Shown here in pieces: positions 5,072-50,034 of a stretch of DNA of 64,000 bases (position 1 is its first letter; each line of letters starts with the position of its first letter). Source of the stretch: a bacterium (lineage in GTDB: Bacteria; UBA8248; JACPRG01; G963555815); assembly GCA_965261595.1 (NCBI GenBank), contig CBDHDG010000002.1, forward strand, positions 64,001 through 128,000. The letters are read 5' to 3'. A program made the translations under genes and the position numbers. The notes under the pieces were generated by a model. That model made no database searches and had not been told where the DNA came from. It saw only the letters and a program-made list of their open reading frames with translations.

Positions 5072-6927
5072 TTATTGCGGTATATCCAACCATTTCAATT
5101 TCCTGAACTTTCCAAAGAAATGTTTTTCATAAAACTTCGTGTCCGGAGGCTTCTGCCATTCGCCTGTCCCGAAATCCAGCGCACCGACGATACCGTCAAT
5201 CTCAATCAGTATCGTCTTTATTTCATGCACTTCCTTGAAGTTAAGGGAATTCGCCCGATACCTTAACGCATCGTCTATGTCCCGCATGATATTCTTGAAG
5301 AGATGATATTGAAGGATATCGGCCGGTATGACCTTCTCCCGGTGCTCGAAGCCGGTCTCCCCGATGATTCTGTCGTATCCTCGAGAGATCAGATTCCCCC
5401 GCTCTAGGGTTTTGTTGGACACTCGATTGATCCATGATTCATGGAGAAAGGGGTGTCGCGATGAACGAACAAAAGCAAGAGGGGGCTTTGGCGGAGGGCG
5501 CCCGCAGGGCGAACGGAGCCAAGGCCCCAGGGCATCGCAGTGAGCGGGGTCGGTTCTCCTGCCAGGCGCAAGCGGGAGGCGGTCCTGCGTCTTTTGCGGG
5601 GCGAGAGCCTGGAGACGCTCTGCCGCGAGTTGGGCACGACAGCGGCTCGGCTTTCCGCCTGGCGCGAGGCGTTCCTTCGCGGGGGCGAGGCGGCGCTCAA
5701 AGCCCGCCCGGCGGATGAGCGGGCCGAGGAGAACGCCCGGCTCAAGGCCAAGGTGGGCGAACTCACGATGGAGGGCGAGGTCCTGCGGGAGAAGATCGAC
5801 CGCCTGGAGGCCGGCCGCCCTTTAGCCGGCAGGAGGTGGAGGCGATGAGTCAGGCCCGCTTCACCTCCACGGGCAGAGCCTACGGCCTGAAGCGGGTGTG
5901 CGCCCTTTGGGGCTTGGCGCGCTCCACGGTCTACGCGCAACGGCGGCGAGAGGCGGTCCCCGTTCATGAACGCCCCACGCCCAATAAGCGCGGCCCTGTG
6001 GGCCCGTGCACCGATGCGGAACTCCTCGGCCACATCCGGCAGGTCCTGGAGGACTCTCCCTTCCATGGCGAGGGCTACCGCAAGGTGTGGGCGAGGCTGC
6101 GCTTCGCGGGCATCCGCACCAGCAAGGAGCGGGTGCGTCGCCTGATGCGGGAGGCGGGGCTTCAGGCCCCCCACCGGGTGGGCAAACCCCGAGGTCCCAA
6201 GGCCCACAACGGGACCATCCGCACCGAGCGGCCCGACCGAATGTGGGGCACGGACATGACGACGACGGTGACCACCGAGGAGGGGGTGGCCTCGGTGTTC
6301 GTGGCGGTGGATCACTGCTCGGTGGACTGCGTGGGGATCCATGCGGCCAAGAGCGGCAACCGCTTCGAGGCCCTGGAGCTGATCCGGCAGGGGGTCGCCG
6401 AGCGCTTCGCCGGCTTGGAGGCGGACGTCGCCGAGGGGCTTAAAGTTCGTCACGACCACGGCCCCGCCTATCTGTCCGATGACTTTCAGCGGGAGATCGC
6501 CTACCTGGGCATGACCAGTTCGCCCAGCTTCGTGCGGGCGCCCGAGGGAAATGGCTACTGTGAGTGGTTCATCCGCATCTTGAAGGAGAATCTCCTGTGG
6601 GTGCGCTCTTTCGCCACCGTAGAGGAACTGCGGTGGGCGCTGCTTGAGTTCAAGAACCTGTACAACCATCATTGGATTCTCGAGGGCTACGGCTACCGAA
6701 CGCCGGCCCAGGCAAGGCAGGAAAAACTCGCTCAAGTTGCGGAGGCCGCATGAGGTCGAATACCCTCACCCGAGTGTCCAATAACCCAGGGGCGGTCCAA
6801 GATGCCGTAGGTGATTGACCTGCTTCCGTCTTGCCACACGCCTCGTGGACCACGCGTATATCCCCAGGATGATTGCGATCGTGATGCCGATCGTAACGCC
6901 TTCGACGAACTCGGATAACGAAATCAT
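5072..6927 (-). pseudogene. About 150-aa hypothetical protein with an N-terminal TM helix, split by IS3 copy A
   Basis: Removing 5395-6799 plus one AGAT restores the frame ...KQVNHLRHL-ISRGYDRIIG... Confidence 0.8.
5395..6799 (+). mobile_element. IS3-family element (type Y) copy A, 1405 bp; orfA frameshifted by an extra G near 5566; orfB about 5845-6753
   Basis: Ends TCCCCCGCTCTAGGGTTTTGTTGGACAC and GTGTCCAATAACCCAGGGGCGGTCCA; 4-bp DR AGAT; DDE motifs WGTDMT, RHDHG, EGNGYCE. Confidence 0.95.
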
Positions 6928-10094: not shown

Positions 10095-11498
10095 TCCCCC
10101 GCTCTAGGGTTTTGTTGGACACTCGATTGATCCATGATTCATGGAGAAAGGGGTGTCGCGATGAACGAACAAAAGCAAGAGGGGGCTTTGGCGGAGGGCG
10201 CCCGCAGGGCGAACGGAGCCAAGGCCCCAGGGCATCGCAGTGAGCGGGGTCGGTTCTCCTGCCAGCGCAAGCGGGAGGCGGTCCTGCGTCTTTTGCGGGG
10301 CGAGAGCCTGGAGACGCTCTGCCGCGAGTTGGGCACGACAGCGGCTCGGCTTTCCGCCTGGCGCGAGGCGTTCCTTCGCGGGGGCGAGGCGGCGCTCAAA
10401 GCCCGCCCGGCGGATGAGCGGGACGAGGAGAACGCCCGGCTCAAGGCCAAGGTGGGCGAACTCACGATGGAGGGCGAGGTCCTGCGGGAGAAGATCGACC
10501 GCCTGGAGGCCGGCCGCCCTTTAGCCGGCAGGAGGTGGAGGCGATGAGTCAGGCCCGCTTCACCTCCACGGGCAGAGCCTACGGCCTGAAGCGGGTGTGC
10601 GCCCTTTGGGGCTTGGCGCGCTCCACGGTCTACGCGCAACGGCGGCGAGAGGCGGTCCCCGTTCATGAACGCCCCACGCCCAATAAGCGCGGCCCTGTGG
10701 GCCCGTGCACCGATGCGGAACTCCTCGGCCACATCCGGCAGGTCCTGGAGGACTCTCCCTTCCATGGCGAGGGCTACCGCAAGGTGTGGGCGAGGCTGCG
10801 CTTCGCGGGCATCCGCACCAGCAAGGAGCGGGTGCGTCGCCTGATGCGGGAGGCGGGGCTTCAGGCCCCCCACCGGGTGGGCAAACCCCGAGGTCCCAAG
10901 GCCCACAACGGGACCATCCGCACCGAGCGGCCCGACCGAATGTGGGGCACGGACATGACGACGACGGTGACCACCGAGGAGGGGATGGCCTCGGTGTTCG
11001 TGGCGGTGGATCACTGCTCGGTGGACTGCGTGGGGATCCATGCGGCCAAGAGCGGCAACCGCTTCGAGGCCCTGGAGCCGATCCGGCAGGGGGTCGCCGA
11101 GCGCTTCGCCGGCTTGGAGGCGGATGTCGCCGAGGGGCTTAAAGTTCGTCACGACCACGGCCCCGCCTATCTGTCCGATGACTTTCAGCGGGAGATCGCC
11201 TACCTGGGCATGACCAGTTCGCCCAGCTTCGTGCGGGCGCCCGAGGGAAATGGCTACTGTGAGTGGTTTATCCGCATCTTGAAGGAGAATCTCCTGTGGG
11301 TGCGCTCTTTCGCCACCGTAGAGGAACTGCGGTGGGCGCTGCTTGAGTTCAAGAACCTGTACAACCATCATTGGATTCTCGAGGGCTACGGCTACCGAAC
11401 GCCGGCCCAGGCAAGGCAGGAAAAACTCGCTCAAGTTGCGGAGGCCGCATGAGGTCGAATACCCTCACCCGAGTGTCCAATAACCCAGGGGCGGTCCA
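10095..11498 (+). mobile_element. IS3 type Y copy B, 1404 bp, intact (orfA about 10161-10547, orfB about 10544-11452)
   Basis: Same ends as copy A; 4-bp DR GAAG; ATGA overlap between orfA and orfB. Confidence 0.95.
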
Positions 11499-12630: not shown

Positions 12631-14493
12631 TCACGAGGAACGATCTCTCATATTTCTACCATGCAAACTTACGGCGTGACATGCAAAGAATACCTTATTT
12701 TTTCTTTGCTGTTCTCCCCATTCTGGATGGATATCCAGTACCTTCTTTACCTCTGGATAACGCCTGAGTAAGTCGTCTTCGTCATACATCTGGACCGCCC
12801 CTGGGTTATTGGACACTCGGGTGAGGGTATTCGACCTCATGCGGCCTCCGCAACTTGAGCGAGTTTTTCCTGCCTTGCCTGGGCCGGCGTTCGGTAGCCG
12901 TAGCCCTCGAGAATCCAATGATGGTTGTACAGGTTCTTGAACTCAAGCAGCGCCCACCGCAGTTCCTCTACGGTGGCGAAAGAGCGCACCCACAGGAGAT
13001 TCTCCTTCAAGATGCGGATGAACCACTCACAGTAGCCATTTCCCTCGGGCGCCCGCACGAAGCTGGGCGAACTGGTCATGCCCAGGTAGGCGATCTCCCG
13101 CTGAAAGTCATCGGACAGATAGGCGGGGCCGTGGTCGTGACGAACTTTAAGCCCCTCGGCGACGTCCGCCTCCAAGCCGGCGAAGCGCTCGGCGACCCCC
13201 TGCCGGATCGGCTCCAGGGCCTCGAAGCGGTTGCCGCTCTTGGCCGCATGGATCCCCACGCAGTCCACCGAACAGTGATCCACCGCCACGAACACCGAGG
13301 CCATCCCCTCCTCGGTGGTCACCGTCGTCGTCATGTCCGTGCCCCACATTCGGTCGGGCCGCTCGGTGCGGATGGTCCCGTTGTGGGCCTTGGGACCTCG
13401 GGGTTTGCCCACCCGGTGGGGGGCCTGAAGCCCCGCCTCCCGCATCAGGCGACGCACCCGCTCCTTGCTGGTGCGGATGCCCGCGAAGCGCAGCCTCGCC
13501 CACACCTTGCGGTAGCCCTCGCCATGGAAGGGAGAGTCCTCCAGGACCTGCCGGATGTGACCGAGGAGTTCCGCATCGGTGCACGGGCCCACAGGGCCGC
13601 GCTTATTGGGCGTGGGGCGTTCATGAACGGGGACCGCCTCTCGCCGCCGTTGCGCGTAGACCGTGGAGCGCGCCAAGCCCCAAAGGGCGCACACCCGCTT
13701 CAGGCCGTAGGCTCTGCCCGTGGAGGTGAAGCGGGCCTGACTCATCGCCTCCACCTCCTGCCGGCTAAAGGGCGGCCGGCCTCCAGGCGGTCGATCTTCT
13801 CCCGCAGGACCTCGCCCTCCATCGTGAGTTCGCCCACCTTGGCCTTGAGCCGGGCGTTCTCCTCGTCCCGCTCATCCGCCGGGCGGGCTTTGAGCGCCGC
13901 CTCGCCCCCGCGAAGGAACGCCTCGCGCCAGGCGGAAAGCCGAGCCGCTGTCGTGCCCAACTCGCGGCAGAGCGTCTCCAGGCTCTCGCCCCGCAAAAGA
14001 CGCAGGACCGCCTCCCGCTTGCGCTGGCAGGAGAACCGACCCCGCTCACTGCGATGCCCTGGGGCCTTGGCTCCGTTCGCCCTGCGGGCGCCCTCCGCCA
14101 AAGCCCCCTCTTGCTTTTGTTCGTTCATCGCGACACCCCTTTCTCCATGAATCATGGATCAATCGAGTGTCCAACAAAACCCTAGAGCGGGGGACATCCC
14201 TGATACGCGATTCATTGCCGTTGGTGAAGATGACCACAACCTCTTGATATCTTTTTCTTTCCAGCCCGCTTCCCTGATTACGTCGTATGCAATCTTACCG
14301 CTACAGATCACCAACTCGGGATTGAGTATACTAAGCATTTCACGCCATAGATCTGACGATAAACGTTGCAGATCGCTATCCGGATTGGCGTTTTTGTTAG
14401 GGTTGTCTGGATCTCGCTGAGACCATAGAACGGCGTTAGAAACAGCCGTTTCTTTTGCCTCTACTCCAAACGCTGCTTCAATAGCCAATTTAA
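12631..14493 (-). pseudogene. Uracil-DNA-glycosylase-like fold protein, low GC; split by IS3 copy C and 5'-truncated at the IS1380 end
   Basis: Removing the IS and one CATC joins ...NRVSGM-YDEDDLL...; motifs VSNAV, NANP, EMLSILNPELVICSGKIAYDVI. Confidence 0.6.
12791..14194 (-). mobile_element. IS3 type Y copy C, 1404 bp, intact
   Basis: Same ends and ORFs; 4-bp DR CATC. Confidence 0.95.
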
Positions 14494-15964
14494 CCCGCAT
14501 TTCCCATATGGATCATAAGTTTTGTCGGACCGAATGCCGTTTTCTCGTGTAAGATCAAGGTGTTGGCCTCTCCCTGCCATCATCTTGCGAGGGGACCCAA
14601 TGGGTGAAGCGAAGAAGGGGGCTTTGAAGATCCGTTTTGACCGTCGGCTGAGGCTTGAGTTTCACGGAACCAGAATCACTTCGGATGCGGGATTGCTGGC
14701 CTGCCGGGAGCTGGATGATGCGCTGGGTTTGACGGTGAGAGCGCCAGTGCAATTGCAAGAGATCCGTCATGGCCGGAACATCCAGCATGAGTTGGCGCCG
14801 CTATTGCGCCAGTCGGTCTATAGCCGCTTGGCAGGGTATGAAGACACCAACGATGCCGAGCGGTTGGCCCAGGACCCCGCGATGCAAGCCGTGGTCGGCC
14901 GCCGAGCGCTTGAGAAGCAGGCGGCGGGCGCCAACACCCTGAGCCGGTTCGAGACCGAGGTTCTCACCAGGGAGGAGAATCTCAAGGGGCCGGAGCGAGC
15001 TGAACCGGGAGTGGGTGGACCGGGCCATGGCACACTCACCCCATCAGCGAATCATCCTGGACATGGACAGCTCGGAAAGCCCCGTCCATGGGGAGCAGGA
15101 AGGTACGGCCTACAACGGCCACTTTCGTTGCACCTGTTATCACCCTCTTTTTTGCTTTAACCAGTTCGGGGACTGCGAAGGGGCGATGTTGCGCCCCGGC
15201 AACGTGCACAGCGCCGATGGCTGGCGCGAGTTGCTTTCGCCCATCGCGGCCCGGTATGAGCGGGCGGGTGTTCGCCGTTACTGCCGAGCCGATGCCGCCT
15301 TTGCGCGCCCGGAGGTCTATGAGTGCCTGGAAGCGCACAGCTTCCTTTACGCCATCCGCCTTCCCGCCAACGACGTGGTGCAGCGAGAGATCGACTTCCT
15401 CCTCACCCGCCCGGTCGGTCGCCCGCCCAAGAGACCCATCATCTTCTATTACGACTTCCGGTATCAGGCTGGAAGCTGGGACCGTTCCCGGCGGGTCGTG
15501 GCGAAGGTGGAATGGCACTCAGGCGAACTCTTCCCTCGCGTCGGATTCATTGTCACGAACCTGACGGCTCGACCCGAGGGGGTCGTGCACTTCTACAACC
15601 AGCGAGGCACAGCCGAGCAATGGATCAAGGAAGGCAAGTACGCCCTGAACTGGACACGCCTTTCCTGTCACCGGTTCGTGTGCAACCAGGTGCGGCTCCT
15701 TCTCTTCGTCCTGGCGTACAACCTGGGCAATTTCCTGCGCAGGCTAGCCTTGCCCAGGGGGCTCAAGCACTGGTCGCTCCGAAGCCTCCAGGTCAAGCTC
15801 ATCAAAATGGGCGGGAGGATTGTGCGGCACGCCCGGCAGATCATCTTTCAATTGGCCGAAGTAGCGGTGTCCAGGGAAGAGTTCGCCATCATCCTGGACC
15901 GAATCAACCGATTACGGCCGGTGCCGGTCTAACCTTGTGCAGAGGGTTCCCGGCAGCATGAGGT
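14494..15964 (+). mobile_element. IS1380-family element; transposase 14600-15932 frameshifted near 14990; right end missing
   Basis: Left end CCCGCATTTCCCATATG; full motif set including YNQRGTAEQWIKEGK across two frames. Confidence 0.9.
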
Positions 15965-17368
15965 TCCCCCGCTCTAGGGTTTTGTTGGACACTCGATTGA
16001 TCCATGATTCATGGAGAAAGGGGTGTCGCGATGAACGAACAAAAGCAAGAGGGGGCTTTGGCGGAGGGCGCCCGCAGGGCGAACGGAGCCAAGGCCCCAG
16101 GGCATCGCAGTGAGCGGGGTCGGTTCTCCTGCCAGCGCAAGCGGGAGGCGGTCCTGCGTCTTTTGCGGGGCGAGAGCCTGGAGACGCTCTGCCGCGAGTT
16201 GGGCACGACAGCGGCTCGGCTTTCCGCCTGGCGCGAGGCGTTCCTTCGCGGGGGCGAGGCGGCGCTCAAAGCCCGCCCGGCGGATGAGCGGGACGAGGAG
16301 AACGCCCGGCTCAAGGCCAAGGTGGGCGAACTCACGATGGAGGGCGAGGTCCTGCGGGAGAAGATCGACCGCCTGGAGGCCGGCCGCCCTTTAGCCGGCA
16401 GGAGGTGGAGGCGATGAGTCAGGCCCGCTTCACCTCCACGGGCAGAGCCTACGGCCTGAAGCGGGTGTGCGCCCTTTGGGGCTTGGCGCGCTCCACGGTC
16501 TACGCGCAACGGCGGCGAGAGGCGGTCCCCGTTCATGAACGCCCCACGCCCAATAAGCGCGGCCCTGTGGGCCCGTGCACCGATGCGGAACTCCTCGGCC
16601 ACATCCGGCAGGTCCTGGAGGACTCTCCCTTCCATGGCGAGGGCTACCGCAAGGTGTGGGCGAGGCTGCGCTTCGCGGGCATCCGCACCAGCAAGGAGCG
16701 GGTGCGTCGCCTGATGCGGGAGGCGGGGCTTCAGGCCCCCCACCGGGTGGGCAAACCCCGAGGTCCCAAGGCCCACAACGGGACCATCCGCACCGAGCGG
16801 CCCGACCGAATGTGGGGCACGGACATGACGACGACGGTGACCACCGAGGAGGGGATGGCCTCGGTGTTCGTGGCGGTGGATCACTGCTCGGTGGACTGCG
16901 TGGGGATCCATGCGGCCAAGAGCGGCAACCGCTTCGAGGCCCTGGAGCCGATCCGGCAGGGGGTCGCCGAGCGCTTCGCCGGCTTGGAGGCGGATGTCGC
17001 CGAGGGGCTTAAAGTTCGTCACGACCACGGCCCCGCCTATCTGTCCGATGACTTTCAGCGGGAGATCGCCTACCTGGGCATGACCAGTTCGCCCAGCTTC
17101 GTGCGGGCGCCCGAGGGAAATGGCTACTGTGAGTGGTTTATCCGCATCTTGAAGGAGAATCTCCTGTGGGTGCGCTCTTTCGCCACCGTAGAGGAACTGC
17201 GGTGGGCGCTGCTTGAGTTCAAGAACCTGTACAACCATCATTGGATTCTCGAGGGCTACGGCTACCGAACGCCGGCCCAGGCAAGGCAGGAAAAACTCGC
17301 TCAAGTTGCGGAGGCCGCATGAGGTCGAATACCCTCACCCGAGTGTCCAATAACCCAGGGGCGGTCCA
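15965..17368 (+). mobile_element. IS3 type Y copy D, 1404 bp, intact, no target duplication
   Basis: Same ends; flanks AGGT and GGCC differ. Confidence 0.95.
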
Positions 17369-45465: not shown

Positions 45466-46857
45466 ATGGAGTACAGGGTGGAGAAGGACTCGATGGGCGA
45501 GATGCGGGTGCCCGTGGATTCGCTCTTTGGGGCGTCCACGCAACGCGCCGTGTTGAATTTTCCGGTGAGCGACAAGCGCTTTTCCCGGGTCTTCCTCGAA
45601 GCCCTGGGCGCGGTGAAGGCGGCGTCGGCGTCGGCCAACATGAAGCTGGGGAAGCTTGATCCCGCGCTGGGCGAGCCTGTCCGCAAGGCGGCCCTGGCCG
45701 TCCGGGACGGCGAGTATGACGCCCACTTCGTTGTGGACATCTACCAGACCGGATCGGGCACCTCGACCAACACCAACGCGAATGAGGTGATCGCCAACGT
45801 GGCCAACGTCGGACTCGGCGAGCCCATCGGCAAGAAGTCGCCTGTGCATCCGAACGATCATGTGAACATGGGGCAGTCGAGCAACGACGTGATTCCGACG
45901 GCCATACACGTCTCGGCGGTCCTGGATGTCGAGCGGAGTCTGCTGCCGGCCCTGGACGCCCTGGAGGAAGCCCTGTCGAAAAAGGCCGAAGCCTTCCGGG
46001 ATGTGGTCAAAACGGGACGGACCCACCTCCAGGACGCGACGCCCGTGACGCTGGGACAGGAGTTTTCCGGATACGCCGTCCAGATCAAGAACTGCCGGGG
46101 GCGGATCGGGCGGAGTCTGGAGAACCTGAAAGAGCTGGCCATCGGCGGCACGGCCGTGGGGACCGGAATCAACACGCATCCGAAATTCGCGGGGCTTGTC
46201 TGCGCGGACCTGAGCAAGCAGTTCGGGACCGATTTCCGCGAGGCCCCCAATCACTTCGAGTCGCTGGCGGCGAAAGACACCTGCGTCGAGGCGAGCGGGA
46301 CGCTCAAGGTGCTGGCCGTCGCCCTGACCAAGATCGCCAACGACATCCGCTGGCTCTCCTCGGGGCCGCGGACGGGTCTGGGCGAGATCGCGATCCCGGA
46401 GACCCAGCCCGGATCGTCCATCATGCCCGGCAAGATCAATCCGGTCATCGCCGAGTCGGTCTTGCAGGTGGCCGCGCAGGTGATGGGAAACGACGTGACC
46501 ATCGGGGTGGGCGGGGCGTCGGGCAACTTCGAGCTCAATGTGATGATGCCGGTGATCGCTTTCAATCTCCTCGACTCCACCCGCCTCCTGGCGAACGTGT
46601 GCGGGATCTTCAAAGAGAAATGCATCGACGGCATCGAGGCCAACGCGGAGCGCGCGGCCGAGACCATCGAGCGCGGGCTGTCGCTTGTCACCGCCTTCGC
46701 GCCCGTGATCGGGTACGACAAGGCGGGGGCGCTCTCTCAGCAGGCCTTCCGGGAGAACAAGACCATCCGGGAGCTGGCCAAAGAGCAGAAGCTGTTCTCC
46801 GATGAGGAGCTCGACCGGCTGCTCGACCCCCGGTCCATGCTTCATCCGGAGGAGTAA
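45466..46857 (+). CDS. fumC: Fumarate hydratase class II
   Basis: QTGSGTSTNTNANEVI, HPNDHVN, GRTHLQDATP, GSSIMPGKINP. Confidence 0.93.
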   Translation: MEYRVEKDSMGEMRVPVDSLFGASTQRAVLNFPVSDKRFSRVFLEALGAVKAASASANMKLGKLDPALGEPVRKAALAVRDGEYDAHFVVDIYQTGSGTSTNTNANEVIANVANVGLGEPIGKKSPVHPNDHVNMGQSSNDVIPTAIHVSAVLDVERSLLPALDALEEALSKKAEAFRDVVKTGRTHLQDATPVTLGQEFSGYAVQIKNCRGRIGRSLENLKELAIGGTAVGTGINTHPKFAGLVCADLSKQFGTDFREAPNHFESLAAKDTCVEASGTLKVLAVALTKIANDIRWLSSGPRTGLGEIAIPETQPGSSIMPGKINPVIAESVLQVAAQVMGNDVTIGVGGASGNFELNVMMPVIAFNLLDSTRLLANVCGIFKEKCIDGIEANAERAAETIERGLSLVTAFAPVIGYDKAGALSQQAFRENKTIRELAKEQKLFSDEELDRLLDPRSMLHPEE

Positions 46858-46905
46858 GGGCCGCCCTCCATCCGGGAGATCGCGATTCCGCCGGAGGAGA
46901 CATCC

Positions 46906-47751
46906 GTGGAACAGGTGAGCGCCAACGTTTTCATCGACGCGACGACCTCGGGCCTGTGCACCGTCGGCGCTGTCCGGACGCCGGAGGGAGTCGTCCTGAT
47001 CTATTCGCCCAACCAGCCGACCCGCGCGGTGAGATGGCGGGGGGAGGTGGAAAGTCTGGGCGAGGTCCGCTACCTGATCAACACCGAATTTCACATCGAC
47101 CACATCTTCGGCAACGCGTTTCTTCCGGGGACCGTGATTGCGCACCGGAAGACGAAAGAGTTGTTCTACACGGACTCGGTGATCGGCCCCAGCCCCATGA
47201 AGGAACCCGAGCCCTACGTGCGGAAGATCGATCCCGAAGGTCTCGGTCTCACGGCGGATTACCGGGCCCGCGGACCGGAGGTCGCCTTCGACGGCCGCCT
47301 CACGCTCAACCTGGGAGGCGTGACCGTCGAGGCCTTCGTGGCGCCCGGCCACGTCCCGTTCCAGCTGGCCGTCCATGTGCCGGGGGAAAAGGTCCTGTTC
47401 GTCAGCGACAACGTTTTCAACGGTGTGATGACGTGGTACCACGATTCCGTCCCGTTCGAATGGCTCGAATCGCTGGACCGCTTCCGGCGGATGGACGTCG
47501 AGGTTGTCGTCCCGGGGCACGGACCGGCTTCCGGGCCGGAGGTGTTCGACGAGATGAAGGAGACCGTCGGCGAGGCCATCGGCCGCGTCCAGTCGGCCAT
47601 CGATTCCGGGATGAGCCGGGAGGAGGCGGGGGACCGGATCTCCTTCCTGGATCGCGTGCCTGTCACCGAGGGGTTCCGGTCCGCCGCGGACAGGCTCCAG
47701 CGGCTCTTCGTCGAGCGGATATACGACCAGATCATGGACCGGAGCGCCTGA
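46906..47751 (+). CDS. MBL-fold metallo-hydrolase (cyclase-like)
   Basis: INTEFHIDHIFGN, APGH, FVSDN, VPGHG; GGAGG RBS with GTG start. Confidence 0.85.
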   Translation: MEQVSANVFIDATTSGLCTVGAVRTPEGVVLIYSPNQPTRAVRWRGEVESLGEVRYLINTEFHIDHIFGNAFLPGTVIAHRKTKELFYTDSVIGPSPMKEPEPYVRKIDPEGLGLTADYRARGPEVAFDGRLTLNLGGVTVEAFVAPGHVPFQLAVHVPGEKVLFVSDNVFNGVMTWYHDSVPFEWLESLDRFRRMDVEVVVPGHGPASGPEVFDEMKETVGEAIGRVQSAIDSGMSREEAGDRISFLDRVPVTEGFRSAADRLQRLFVERIYDQIMDRSA

Positions 47752-47819
47752 GGGACGGGCGAATTCCGCCGTCCGGAGCGCGGCATCCGAACCGGGGATC
47801 GATCCCCAAGGAGACAGCA

Positions 47820-48506
47820 ATGAGCGATCTTCCCAATATCGACATTTATCACGAATATCACTGACCGTGGGCTTACATGGCCTCGGCGAGGCTGAAGGCG
47901 ATCTTCCCTGAGTTCAAGGACCGGCTCACCATCCACTGGCGGGCGTTTCCACTGGATGTGATCAACGGCCGGCCCCTTCCCCGTCACATCGTGGACCAGG
48001 AGTGGCCGCACGTCGCCAACGAGGAGCCCCTGTGCGCGTTTCGCCCGTGGGACAACATCGGCTTCCCCGATACGAGCATTTTGGCTTACGAGATATACGA
48101 TTGCGCTTATGCCCAGGACCCAGTGAAGGCCTTCGACCTCGATTACCGGATCCGGCGGGCGTTTTATTACGAAAGCCGGTGGATCCATCTCCGGAATACG
48201 CTGCTGGAGATCGGCGGCGAGGCGGGCCTCGAGATGGACCGGCTGACCGAAAACTTCGACACCGGCCGTTACAAGGCCCGGGTGATGCTCGACTGCAAGG
48301 AGGCCCTGCGGAAGCGCGATGAAGAAGGCAAGTCGATGACGAGCCCGACCCTCATCCTGCCCAACGGCGAGTTCTACTACAACCCCTTCGCGACCGAGAA
48401 GACCTTCAACGAAGACAAGGTGATGATCGTTCTCAAGCAGCCCGAAAAGACGGGAGAGGACGCATTGGAGGGGTACCGGGAGATCCTGCGGGGGGTGTTG
48501 GGATAG
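47820..48506 (+). CDS. DsbA/FrnE-like thioredoxin-fold protein, probable selenoprotein (Sec at TGA 47862-47864)
   Basis: AAGGAG RBS and ATG 47820; MSDLPNIDIYHEYH-TGA-PWAYMAS continues in frame to 48506; WRAFPL and cis-Pro SPTL motifs. Confidence 0.8.
47865..47897 (+). promoter_or_regulatory. Candidate bacterial SECIS hairpin
   Basis: GGCCTC-GGC-GAGGCT stem-loop with the loop G 21 nt after the TGA; lower stem CTT/AAG. Confidence 0.55.
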
Positions 48507-48514
48507 AGTCAGTA

Positions 48515-49918
48515 TGGACCGCCCCTGGGTTATTGGACACTCGGGTGAGGGTATTCGACCTCATGCGGCCTCCGCAACTTGAGCGAGTTTTTCCTGCCTT
48601 GCCTGGGCCGGCGTTCGGTAGCCGTAGCCCTCGAGAATCCAATGATGGTTGTACAGGTTCTTGAACTCAAGCAGCGCCCACCGCAGTTCCTCTACGGTGG
48701 CGAAAGAGCGCACCCACAGGAGATTCTCCTTCAAGATGCGGATAAACCACTCACAGTAGCCATTTCCCTCGGGCGCCCGCACGAAGCTGGGCGAACTGGT
48801 CATGCCCAGGTAGGCGATCTCCCGCTGAAAGTCATCGGACAGATAGGCGGGGCCGTGGTCGTGACGAACTTTAAGCCCCTCGGCGACGTCCGCCTCCAAG
48901 CCGGCGAAGCGCTCGGCGACCCCCTGCCGGATCGGCTCCAGGGCCTCGAAGCGGTTGCCGCTCTTGGCCGCATGGATCCCCACGCAGTCCACCGAGCAGT
49001 GATCCACCGCCACGAACACCGAGGCCATCCCCTCCTCGGTGGTCACCGTCGTCGTCATGTCCGTGCCCCACATTCGGTCGGGCCGCTCGGTGCGGATGGT
49101 CCCGTTGTGGGCCTTGGGACCTCGGGGTTTGCCCACCCGGTGGGGGGCCTGAAGCCCCGCCTCCCGCATCAGGCGACGCACCCGCTCCTTGCTGGTGCGG
49201 ATGCCCGCGAAGCGCAGCCTCGCCCACACCTTGCGGTAGCCCTCGCCATGGAAGGGAGAGTCCTCCAGGACCTGCCGGATGTGGCCGAGGAGTTCCGCAT
49301 CGGTGCACGGGCCCACAGGGCCGCGCTTATTGGGCGTGGGGCGTTCATGAACGGGGACCGCCTCTCGCCGCCGTTGCGCGTAGACCGTGGAGCGCGCCAA
49401 GCCCCAAAGGGCGCACACCCGCTTCAGGCCGTAGGCTCTGCCCGTGGAGGTGAAGCGGGCCTGACTCATCGCCTCCACCTCCTGCCGGCTAAAGGGCGGC
49501 CGGCCTCCAGGCGGTCGATCTTCTCCCGCAGGACCTCGCCCTCCATCGTGAGTTCGCCCACCTTGGCCTTGAGCCGGGCGTTCTCCTCGTCCCGCTCATC
49601 CGCCGGGCGGGCTTTGAGCGCCGCCTCGCCCCCGCGAAGGAACGCCTCGCGCCAGGCGGAAAGCCGAGCCGCTGTCGTGCCCAACTCGCGGCAGAGCGTC
49701 TCCAGGCTCTCGCCCCGCAAAAGACGCAGGACCGCCTCCCGCTTGCGCTGGCAGGAGAACCGACCCCGCTCACTGCGATGCCCTGGGGCCTTGGCTCCGT
49801 TCGCCCTGCGGGCGCCCTCCGCCAAAGCCCCCTCTTGCTTTTGTTCGTTCATCGCGACACCCCTTTCTCCATGAATCATGGATCAATCGAGTGTCCAACA
49901 AAACCCTAGAGCGGGGGA
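48515..49918 (-). mobile_element. IS3 type Y copy E, 1404 bp, intact
   Basis: Same ends and ORFs; 4-bp DR AGTA. Confidence 0.95.
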
Positions 49919-50034
49919 AGTAGACCGATGGCGCCCGGGCCTCGGGAGGCTTCAGGCTCTCCGGCGGCAAATAGGATGCGCAAAGGCCGTATAATGATTG
50001 ACCTCTGGAGACGGAAGCCCGGGGGTGAGATTGC

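Follow-up and report, generated by a model that had tools for sequence, protein, structure and literature searches.

We examined a 64,000-nucleotide stretch of bacterial DNA (positions 64,001 to 128,000 of contig CBDHDG010000002.1, assembly GCA_965261595.1; hereafter the window), in which a predicted selenoprotein gene occupies positions 47820..48506 on the forward strand. A Shine-Dalgarno-like AAGGAG (47808..47813, +) lies 6 nt before an ATG at 47820, and 14 sense codons (MSDLPNIDIYHEYH) separate this ATG from an in-frame TGA (47862..47864, +). Beyond the TGA the frame continues as PWAYMASARL and on through 213 codons to a TAG stop at 48504-48506. When the TGA is read through, the open reading frame (ORF) is intact and complete at 228 residues, with the TGA as residue 15 (U15, U denoting selenocysteine, Sec) of a UPWA motif; its product matches the Pfam DSBA family. 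A hairpin of the selenocysteine insertion sequence (SECIS) type lies at 47879..47893 (+). The program-made ORF list splits the gene, one ORF ending at 47864 and the next opening at an internal ATG (Met20, 47877..47879, +), which is also the start of the 209-residue product in gene calls and database proteins. An initial reading made from the letters alone (the sequence-only reading) had described the ribosome-binding site, the ATG, the 14 codons, the TGA followed by PWAY and about 210 codons, and the split in the ORF track. Each of these was read directly from the DNA again, the last stretch being 213 codons long.

Related DNA was fetched as 80 loci from GTDB representative genomes, and the active-site column was counted in the window and the 78 loci that cover the N-terminus (79 sequences; L016, with a deletion, and L047, at a contig end, were left out). 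The column holds TGA in 52/79 sequences and TGC or TGT in 27/79, and TAA or TAG was found in none of the 79. The TGA sequences read UPWA (37 sequences), UPWC (14) and UPWS (1), and the TGC/TGT sequences read CPWC (22) and CPWT (5). The sequence-only reading had placed Sec at the first position of the motif and named this column in homologues as the place to look; Cys or TGA stands there in 79/79 sequences, with no other residue. One database protein, P0010, which is full length, 62% identical and located in the same starred subclade of the family tree as the window, has Cys at the Sec column (EYQ-C-PWAYV, i.e. CPWA). A metagenome scan for the DNA of this CPWA form returned just 2 loci, both Sec-type or cut at the N-terminus.

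The 14 codons 5' of the TGA are conserved at the protein level and change synonymously: F-H-E-Y-H occupies residues -5 to -1 across the clade, and the third positions of these codons vary (for example CAC in 24 and CAT in 13). In 31/35 UPWA-clade loci the distance from start to TGA is 14 codons, and in the remaining 4 it is 11 or 13; many related loci have a stop codon shortly 5' of the predicted start. Since the codon for Met20 (+5) encodes Met in just 21/37 clade members, it cannot be a general start. Contigs from a second study's run (X5), whose strain differs at four other positions, carry the TGA unchanged. Two contigs from metatranscriptome libraries of two further studies span 47700-48012 and 47741-47956 and so include the start codon as well as the TGA and hairpin.

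In a maximum-likelihood tree with 76 rows, the family falls into two clades that both have 100/100 support. The xPWA clade holds 35 UPWA rows and P0010 (CPWA), with the labels Nitrospinota, Nitrospinaceae or Tectomicrobia, and places the window with L015, L014 and P0010 in a starred subclade. Bacteria of the Nitrospinota/Tectomicrobia type include marine nitrite oxidisers. Sec is nearly fixed in the UPWA clade, with 37 TGA codons (the window and 36 motif-bearing loci) against one known Cys form. The sister clade comprises xPWC, xPWT and xPWS forms of Chloroflexota, Thermomicrobiota and Gemmatimonadota; Sec and Cys forms are interspersed within it, and its starred branches require no fewer than 4 changes for UPWC. 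Among the sister-clade loci L049-L093, the motifs UPWC, CPWC, CPWT and UPWS stand side by side, with several switches between Sec and Cys.

The genome of the window (6.17 Mb, 7 contigs) was searched for the Sec machinery, and tRNA-Sec, selA, selB and selD, for which the sequence-only reading had advised a search, are all present. The tRNA-Sec scored 72 bits and was called SeC with anticodon TCA by ARAGORN, and selA adjoins selB. The selD gene (G000:C5:89297-90265, minus strand; L012) itself contains a single in-frame TGA, inside AGG-U-GSK, and thus serves as a built-in positive control for the decoding of UGA as Sec in this organism. A SelD-like paralogue lies near selD (C5:85711-86454) and scored 95.6 bits, under the cut-off. 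Across the family, selA was above the cut-off in 5/5 genomes with Sec forms and also in 4/5 genomes with Cys forms, so that selA looks necessary but not discriminating.

The hairpin GGCCUC-GGC-GAGGCU has a 6-bp stem (47879-47884 with 47888-47893) and a 3-nt GGC loop (47885-47887) that starts 20 nt past the TGA, and its core has a minimum free energy (MFE) of -8.2 kcal/mol. Loop, stem, spacing and MFE (4/4 values) all fall within the constraints for bacterial SECIS elements given in the Fig. 2 legend of PMC13188914. The z-scores from shuffling were +0.31 (71 nt), -0.52 (44 nt) and -2.21 (19-nt core); as the values for 71 and 44 nt are unremarkable, energy was dropped as evidence and the comparative data carry the weight.

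Those data were obtained from 36 sequences, 27 of them distinct, in which standard pairs fill 98.1% of the pair cells, a value that 0/500 shuffles equalled; when the 3' partners were slid by 1-3 columns, the paired cells fell to 21.6-52.5%. One G-C pair has become U-A in a compensatory manner; the window, L014 and L015 share this change and have Ser-TCG/Arg-AGG instead of Ala-GCG/Arg-CGG. Codons within the hairpin are frozen (Ala +6 GCC in 37/37, Ala +7 GCG in 34/34, Ala +8 GCG in 36/36 and Arg +9 NGG in 37/37), whereas codons outside it vary, with four codons each at Pro +1, Ala +3 and Ala +27 and five at Arg +26. Frozen synonymous sites beside free neighbours indicate selection at the RNA level overlying the coding sequence. 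The SECIS-like GGCCTC/GAGGCT hairpin with a G-first 3-nt loop that the sequence-only reading had marked 3' of the TGA was therefore not only found but also comparatively constrained. In the sister clade, the Sec forms have GTG in 15/15 and CGC in 15/15 at codons +8 and +9 and the Cys forms are mixed, a contrast that is confounded by relatedness. The fixed GTG-CGC of the Sec forms suggests a second, different SECIS (GC[CG]-GUG-CGC-CUG).

From the sequence comparisons, we put the probability that the TGA at 47862-64 is decoded as selenocysteine at about 0.93. We hold with nearly the same confidence that the locus is an intact gene for a cytoplasmic oxidoreductase of the DsbA/FrnE fold, with a catalytic Sec (U15) directed by the hairpin, and that it is the Sec form of a CxxA branch. 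Several points weigh against this interpretation. The metatranscriptome-library contigs are only consistent with transcription and cannot prove it. Folding energy alone is unexceptional in G+C-rich DNA for the longer windows, and the covariation amounts to a single pair, that is, one compensatory event in one subclade. Within the sister xPWC clade, local MFE did not separate Sec from Cys forms (mean -8.6 versus -9.4, Mann-Whitney p 0.49). A scan of the whole window at the Rfam gathering thresholds gave 0 matches, although whether Rfam holds a fitting bacterial SECIS model was not checked. Finally, the gene context, which is described below, is not informative on function.

The public gene calls embody a different explanation, in which the TGA is a true stop, the product is the 209-residue protein that begins at Met20 and has no active site, and the upstream 14 codons are a leader or non-coding. 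These calls match the 209-residue product exactly, and the closer database matches are mostly 208-211 residues long, with just 1/52 (P0010) at full length. Such a stop is nevertheless very improbable, because codon +5 is Met in only 21/37 relatives, the ribosome-binding site stands in front of the ATG at 47820 rather than of 47877, and the upstream codons have been kept as protein with synonymous change. In addition, the Cys-form homologues run unbroken through the TGA position, and it is implausible that a thioredoxin fold would lack both strand 1 and the active site. Reading of the UGA without selenium, either by a standard tRNA (a near-cognate for Trp or Cys) or under a code in which TGA is a sense codon, deserves equally little weight. 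Low-level read-through of UGA occurs in bacteria, but the adjacent MBL gene and many other ORFs terminate with TGA, the genome holds a dedicated tRNA-Sec with selA, selB and selD, selA is above the cut-off in 5/5 genomes with Sec forms, and the hairpin is under an RNA-level constraint that simple read-through does not need.

Least credible of all is that the gene is a pseudogene, or that the TGA stems from faulty assembly or from a Cys codon recently hit by a nonsense mutation. A single substitution would turn TGC or TGT into TGA, and the close relative L016 has a 74-nt deletion that removes the region. Set against this, the same TGA recurs in 52 independent assemblies, never as TAA or TAG, it is unchanged in the runs of other studies, and the frame 3' of it is intact and conserved.

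For Pfam and NCBIfam scans, the read-through protein was given Cys in place of U. It matched Pfam DSBA (PF01323) with 31.8 bits against a cut-off of 25.6, and no NCBIfam model matched it. A profile of 42 read-through homologues matched FrnE of Deinococcus radiodurans (5cnw) with an E value of 1.7e-13 and aligned the TGA with the first of the two Cys residues in CPWC; the phmmer match to the same structure had an E value of 3.8e-06. The AlphaFold2 model of the read-through protein had a mean predicted local distance difference test score (pLDDT) of 93.4 and a predicted template modelling score (pTM) of 0.91. Strand 1 of this model begins at residue 6, so that the model gives no hint of a signal peptide, a signal-peptide predictor not having been run. 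Foldseek put the model in the company of cytoplasmic DsbA-like proteins; its top matches were 2in3, FrnE, DsbM, HCCA isomerase and kappa glutathione S-transferase (GST), and Rv2466c was also matched. An oxidoreductase function is quite probable.

A search of 5.8 billion proteins gave 52 matches, and an exhaustive phmmer search over 1.84 billion representatives showed the family to be small, with 233 proteins reaching E <= 1e-3, of which 68 reach E <= 1e-10. A motif regular expression matched 95/148 representatives examined (CxxA 57, CxxC 28, CxxS 6, CxxG 2, CxxR 1 and SxxI 1); in the other 53, most of them fragments or proteins short at the N-terminus, no motif could be recognised. Among 41 full-length Cxx[ASG] proteins, the active-site Cys alone is universal, and 7/41 have one Cys in total. 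With a single conserved nucleophile and no CxxC partner, the window's protein resembles monothiol CxxA DsbA-like proteins with Sec for Cys, and by sequence UPWA is the Sec version of this mainly monothiol branch. The monoselenol UxxA site proposed by the sequence-only reading was borne out to the extent that the window reads UPWA, like all 37 members of its clade. L094, a close relative of the window, has the motif UPWS and an identical hairpin. Eight more distant representatives (P0067, P0074, P0093, P0100, P0110, P0137, P0161 and P0198) start right after the active-site motif ('M..RL...'), like truncated Sec forms, and may be further unrecognised Sec subfamilies.

DsbA-like selenoproteins have been reported before. 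A COG2761 member with UxxC was described from 9 sequences of the Sargasso Sea in 2005 (PMC1088965), others were noted in several genomes (PMC1794560), and the Global Ocean Sampling analysis of 2008 listed DsbA 1 and 2 with UxxC and DsbA 3 with UxxV, from 5 sequences (PMC2398784). A 2026 review distinguishes 'form 1' (UxxC) and 'form 2' (DxxUP) (PMC13188914). In the available portions of these four papers, UxxA is not among the tabulated DsbA-like forms, and the string 'UxxA' did not occur in the selenoprotein papers matched by a text search. The UxxV form (DsbA 3) sets a precedent for DsbA-type selenoproteins that lack a resolving Cys. What is new here is the UxxA/S variant of a selenoprotein class known since 2005, in keeping with the earlier suggestion of a known class in an unannotated variant. 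The window's protein shares with the published members PF01323, Sec at the first motif position, the existence of Cys homologues, and a SECIS hairpin just 3' of the UGA whose small apical loop contains G. Unlike form 1, it reads UPWA rather than UxxC (UPWS in L094); the sister clade UPWC of Chloroflexota and Gemmatimonadota fits the published UxxC form.

FrnE of D. radiodurans (DR_0659; 5cnw, 5co3, 5xwh), a cytoplasmic disulfide reductase/isomerase, is the best sequence match with a solved structure. Both proteins have an xPWx motif at the start of helix 1 and no apparent signal peptide, and their folds agree with a TM-score of about 0.64. FrnE carries CPWC and a C-terminal CxxxxC that aids regeneration of the active site, according to PMC8945050. 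The window's protein differs in having Sec, Ala for the second Cys and no CxxxxC, with about 15% identity over the fold, and lacks both the CxxC of the FrnE subfamily and the CxxxxC that often accompanies it there. A second likeness is to CxxA DsbA-like proteins, HCCA isomerase and kappa GST (2in3, 7dk9 DR_2335, 3fz5, 2imd, 1r4w), which have the same fold and Ala or another non-Cys residue at the fourth motif position; CxxA is also the commonest motif among detectable homologues (57/95). These proteins use Cys or Ser where the window's protein uses Sec, and no characterised function for a member of the CxxA group was met in the portions of the literature that were available.

Cysteine patterns differ between the two clades. 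C210 and C215, a CxxxxC near the C-terminus that recalls the regenerating CxxxxC of FrnE, occur in 39/39 xPWC/xPWT sequences and in 0/36 xPWA-clade sequences, the xPWA clade having lost both this pair and Cys18. Conversely, a Cys at column 72 or 74 is present in 36/36 xPWA-clade genome loci and in 0/40 sister-clade sequences (xPWC, xPWT, xPWS); it is Cys72 in the window (codons 71-72, L-C, 48031..48036, +) and Cys74 in most relatives, and is an addition of the Nitrospinota clade relative to the CxxA group. The one group in which Cys95 and Cys159 are invariant is the window's subclade (12/12 members). A universal distal Cys at 72/74 was considered and rejected, because two of 12 metagenomic relatives (P0009 and P0011) lack it in spite of the 36/36 loci, and it is absent from the wider CxxA homologues.

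We propose that SelB and Sec-tRNA(Sec) would insert Sec at the UGA (47862-64) under the direction of the hairpin at 47879-93. The selenolate of U15, predicted to be solvent-exposed at the N-terminus of helix 1, would then attack a disulfide, an S-thiolated protein or an oxidant, and a selenenylsulfide or selenenic acid would form at U15. As the motif has no vicinal Cys, an external thiol, either a low-molecular-weight thiol or a partner protein, would have to resolve the Se-S or Se-OH intermediate, possibly by analogy with monothiol glutaredoxins and with the glutathione-dependent relatives of the kappa-GST/HCCA-isomerase type. Dependence on a low-molecular-weight thiol is plausible because S-G-Y-A of 3fz5 aligns with U-P-W-A and the fold matches kappa GST. 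On balance we lean towards U15 working as a monoselenol that is resolved by an external thiol.

Alternatively, a lineage-specific distal Cys (Cys72/74, or Cys95/Cys159) would resolve the intermediate internally through an intramolecular selenenylsulfide, taking the place of the CxxC partner and the CxxxxC relay. The distribution of Cys at 72/74 (36/36 xPWA-clade loci against 0/40 sister-clade sequences), the C210 and C215 carried instead by the xPWC/xPWT sequences of the sister clade (39/40), and the invariance of Cys95 and Cys159 in 12/12 members of the subclade all point in this direction, as does the regenerating role reported for the CxxxxC of FrnE in PMC8945050. We nevertheless consider this route unlikely, since P0009 and P0011 (2/12) have no Cys at 72/74, fewer than 3 of 41 wider Cxx[ASG] homologues have one there and 7/41 contain a single Cys, and the clade-level pattern could stem from a single evolutionary event. 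The statement in the sequence-only reading that there is no resolving Cys accordingly holds for the motif itself, but the lineage-specific Cys residues elsewhere in the protein stay candidates.

A stronger version of the distal-Cys idea is more doubtful still. In it, the UPWA clade would be a rewired, effectively obligate-Sec enzyme that has lost the CxxC partner and the CxxxxC relay and has recruited Cys 72/74 as a distal resolver. If true, it would provide a natural case of Sec compensating for a one-nucleophile active site and a new intramolecular Se-S relay. Irrespective of how U15 is resolved, this small family contains natural contrasts of U with C and of xxA with xxC, which could be used to ask why Sec persists without a resolving Cys.

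The consequences for annotation are direct. The closer database proteins are mostly 208-211 residues long and begin with MA[SA]ARL just 3' of the TGA, and the Cys form P0010 is the sole full-length database relative among the 52. Public annotation thus systematically shortens the gene to about 209 residues without the active site, and because the deposited proteins lack the catalytic residue, any functional or structural inference from them would be wrong. The MAG (metagenome-assembled genome) of locus L033 has 54 selenoprotein genes in BSepDB (PMC13326102). The texts 'DsbA', 'FrnE' and 'PF01323' are absent from one supplement file of that paper, and BSepDB may already list the gene under 'DsbA-like'. 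The gene is a conserved, lineage-wide selenoprotein that adds to bacteria reported to be among the most selenoprotein-rich. It does not introduce a new principle, as DsbA-like selenoproteins and bacterial SECIS elements of such a type are already well described; the selenoprotein gene itself is real, intact and conserved, and the finding is useful rather than surprising.

Two loci depart from the intact gene structure. The GTDB relative nearest to the window, L016 (92% protein identity and a shared acn-fumC-MBL context), is missing 74 nt that are bounded by a pair of 11-nt direct repeats (L016:2990-3010 compared with window 47824-47908; repeats at 47824-34 and 47898-908). Codons 2-26, and with them the TGA and the SECIS, are absent as a result, and the frame is shifted; this could be a real gene loss or an artefact of MAG assembly. 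L094, which has a similar upstream region, carries an intact gene. The UPWA locus L061:2983-3264, in a complete-chromosome MAG, meets a stop after just 93 codons, even though its tblastn match spans residues 7-224; a frameshift is likely, due either to misassembly or to the locus being a pseudogene.

The selenoprotein gene is preceded on its own strand by, successively, a MerR regulator, an aconitate hydratase (TIGR01342, 908 bits), a lyase of the class II fumarase/aspartase family and a generic hydrolase of the metallo-beta-lactamase (MBL) fold. The lyase ('fumC', 45466-46857, +) scored above the cut-off for aspartate ammonia-lyase NF008909 (554.7 versus 510) and below that for TIGR00979 fumC_II (589.9 versus 664.75), which leaves fumarase versus aspartase unsettled. 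By tblastn of the neighbours, the aconitase/fumC/MBL arrangement recurs in 1/80 related loci, namely L016, and other relatives keep different neighbours; those of the main clade are a cupin, an alpha/beta-hydrolase, CoA_binding_2 and an aldo-keto reductase, none of which occurs in the window. An operon or redox-partner link to aconitase, fumC and MBL, as put forward in the sequence-only reading, was therefore rejected as unsupported, and there is no comparative support for a redox partner of tricarboxylic acid cycle enzymes. No promoter-like or terminator-like site was found in 46700-48700.

Downstream and outside the gene, an insertion sequence (IS) element of the IS3 type, with orfA (Pfam HTH_Tnp_1) and orfB (rve), occupies 48515..49919 on the minus strand; it is 1,405 bp long and begins 8 nt past the stop codon. 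Five copies of this 1.4-kb element, at least 99.6% identical, lie within the 64 kb, the others at 5394-6799, 10095-11498, 12791-14194 and 15964-17368. Contig depth rises at 48515 from about 5-20 to about 2000 in two DNA runs, indicating a very high copy number of the element in the sample. A crude screen of the window for TGA read-through (C, S or T at ±2 or ±3) gave 49 candidates, mostly IS copies or high-GC noise, examples being 'ASGCUPVSD' at + 55067 and 'PPPDUKCPC' at + 53138.

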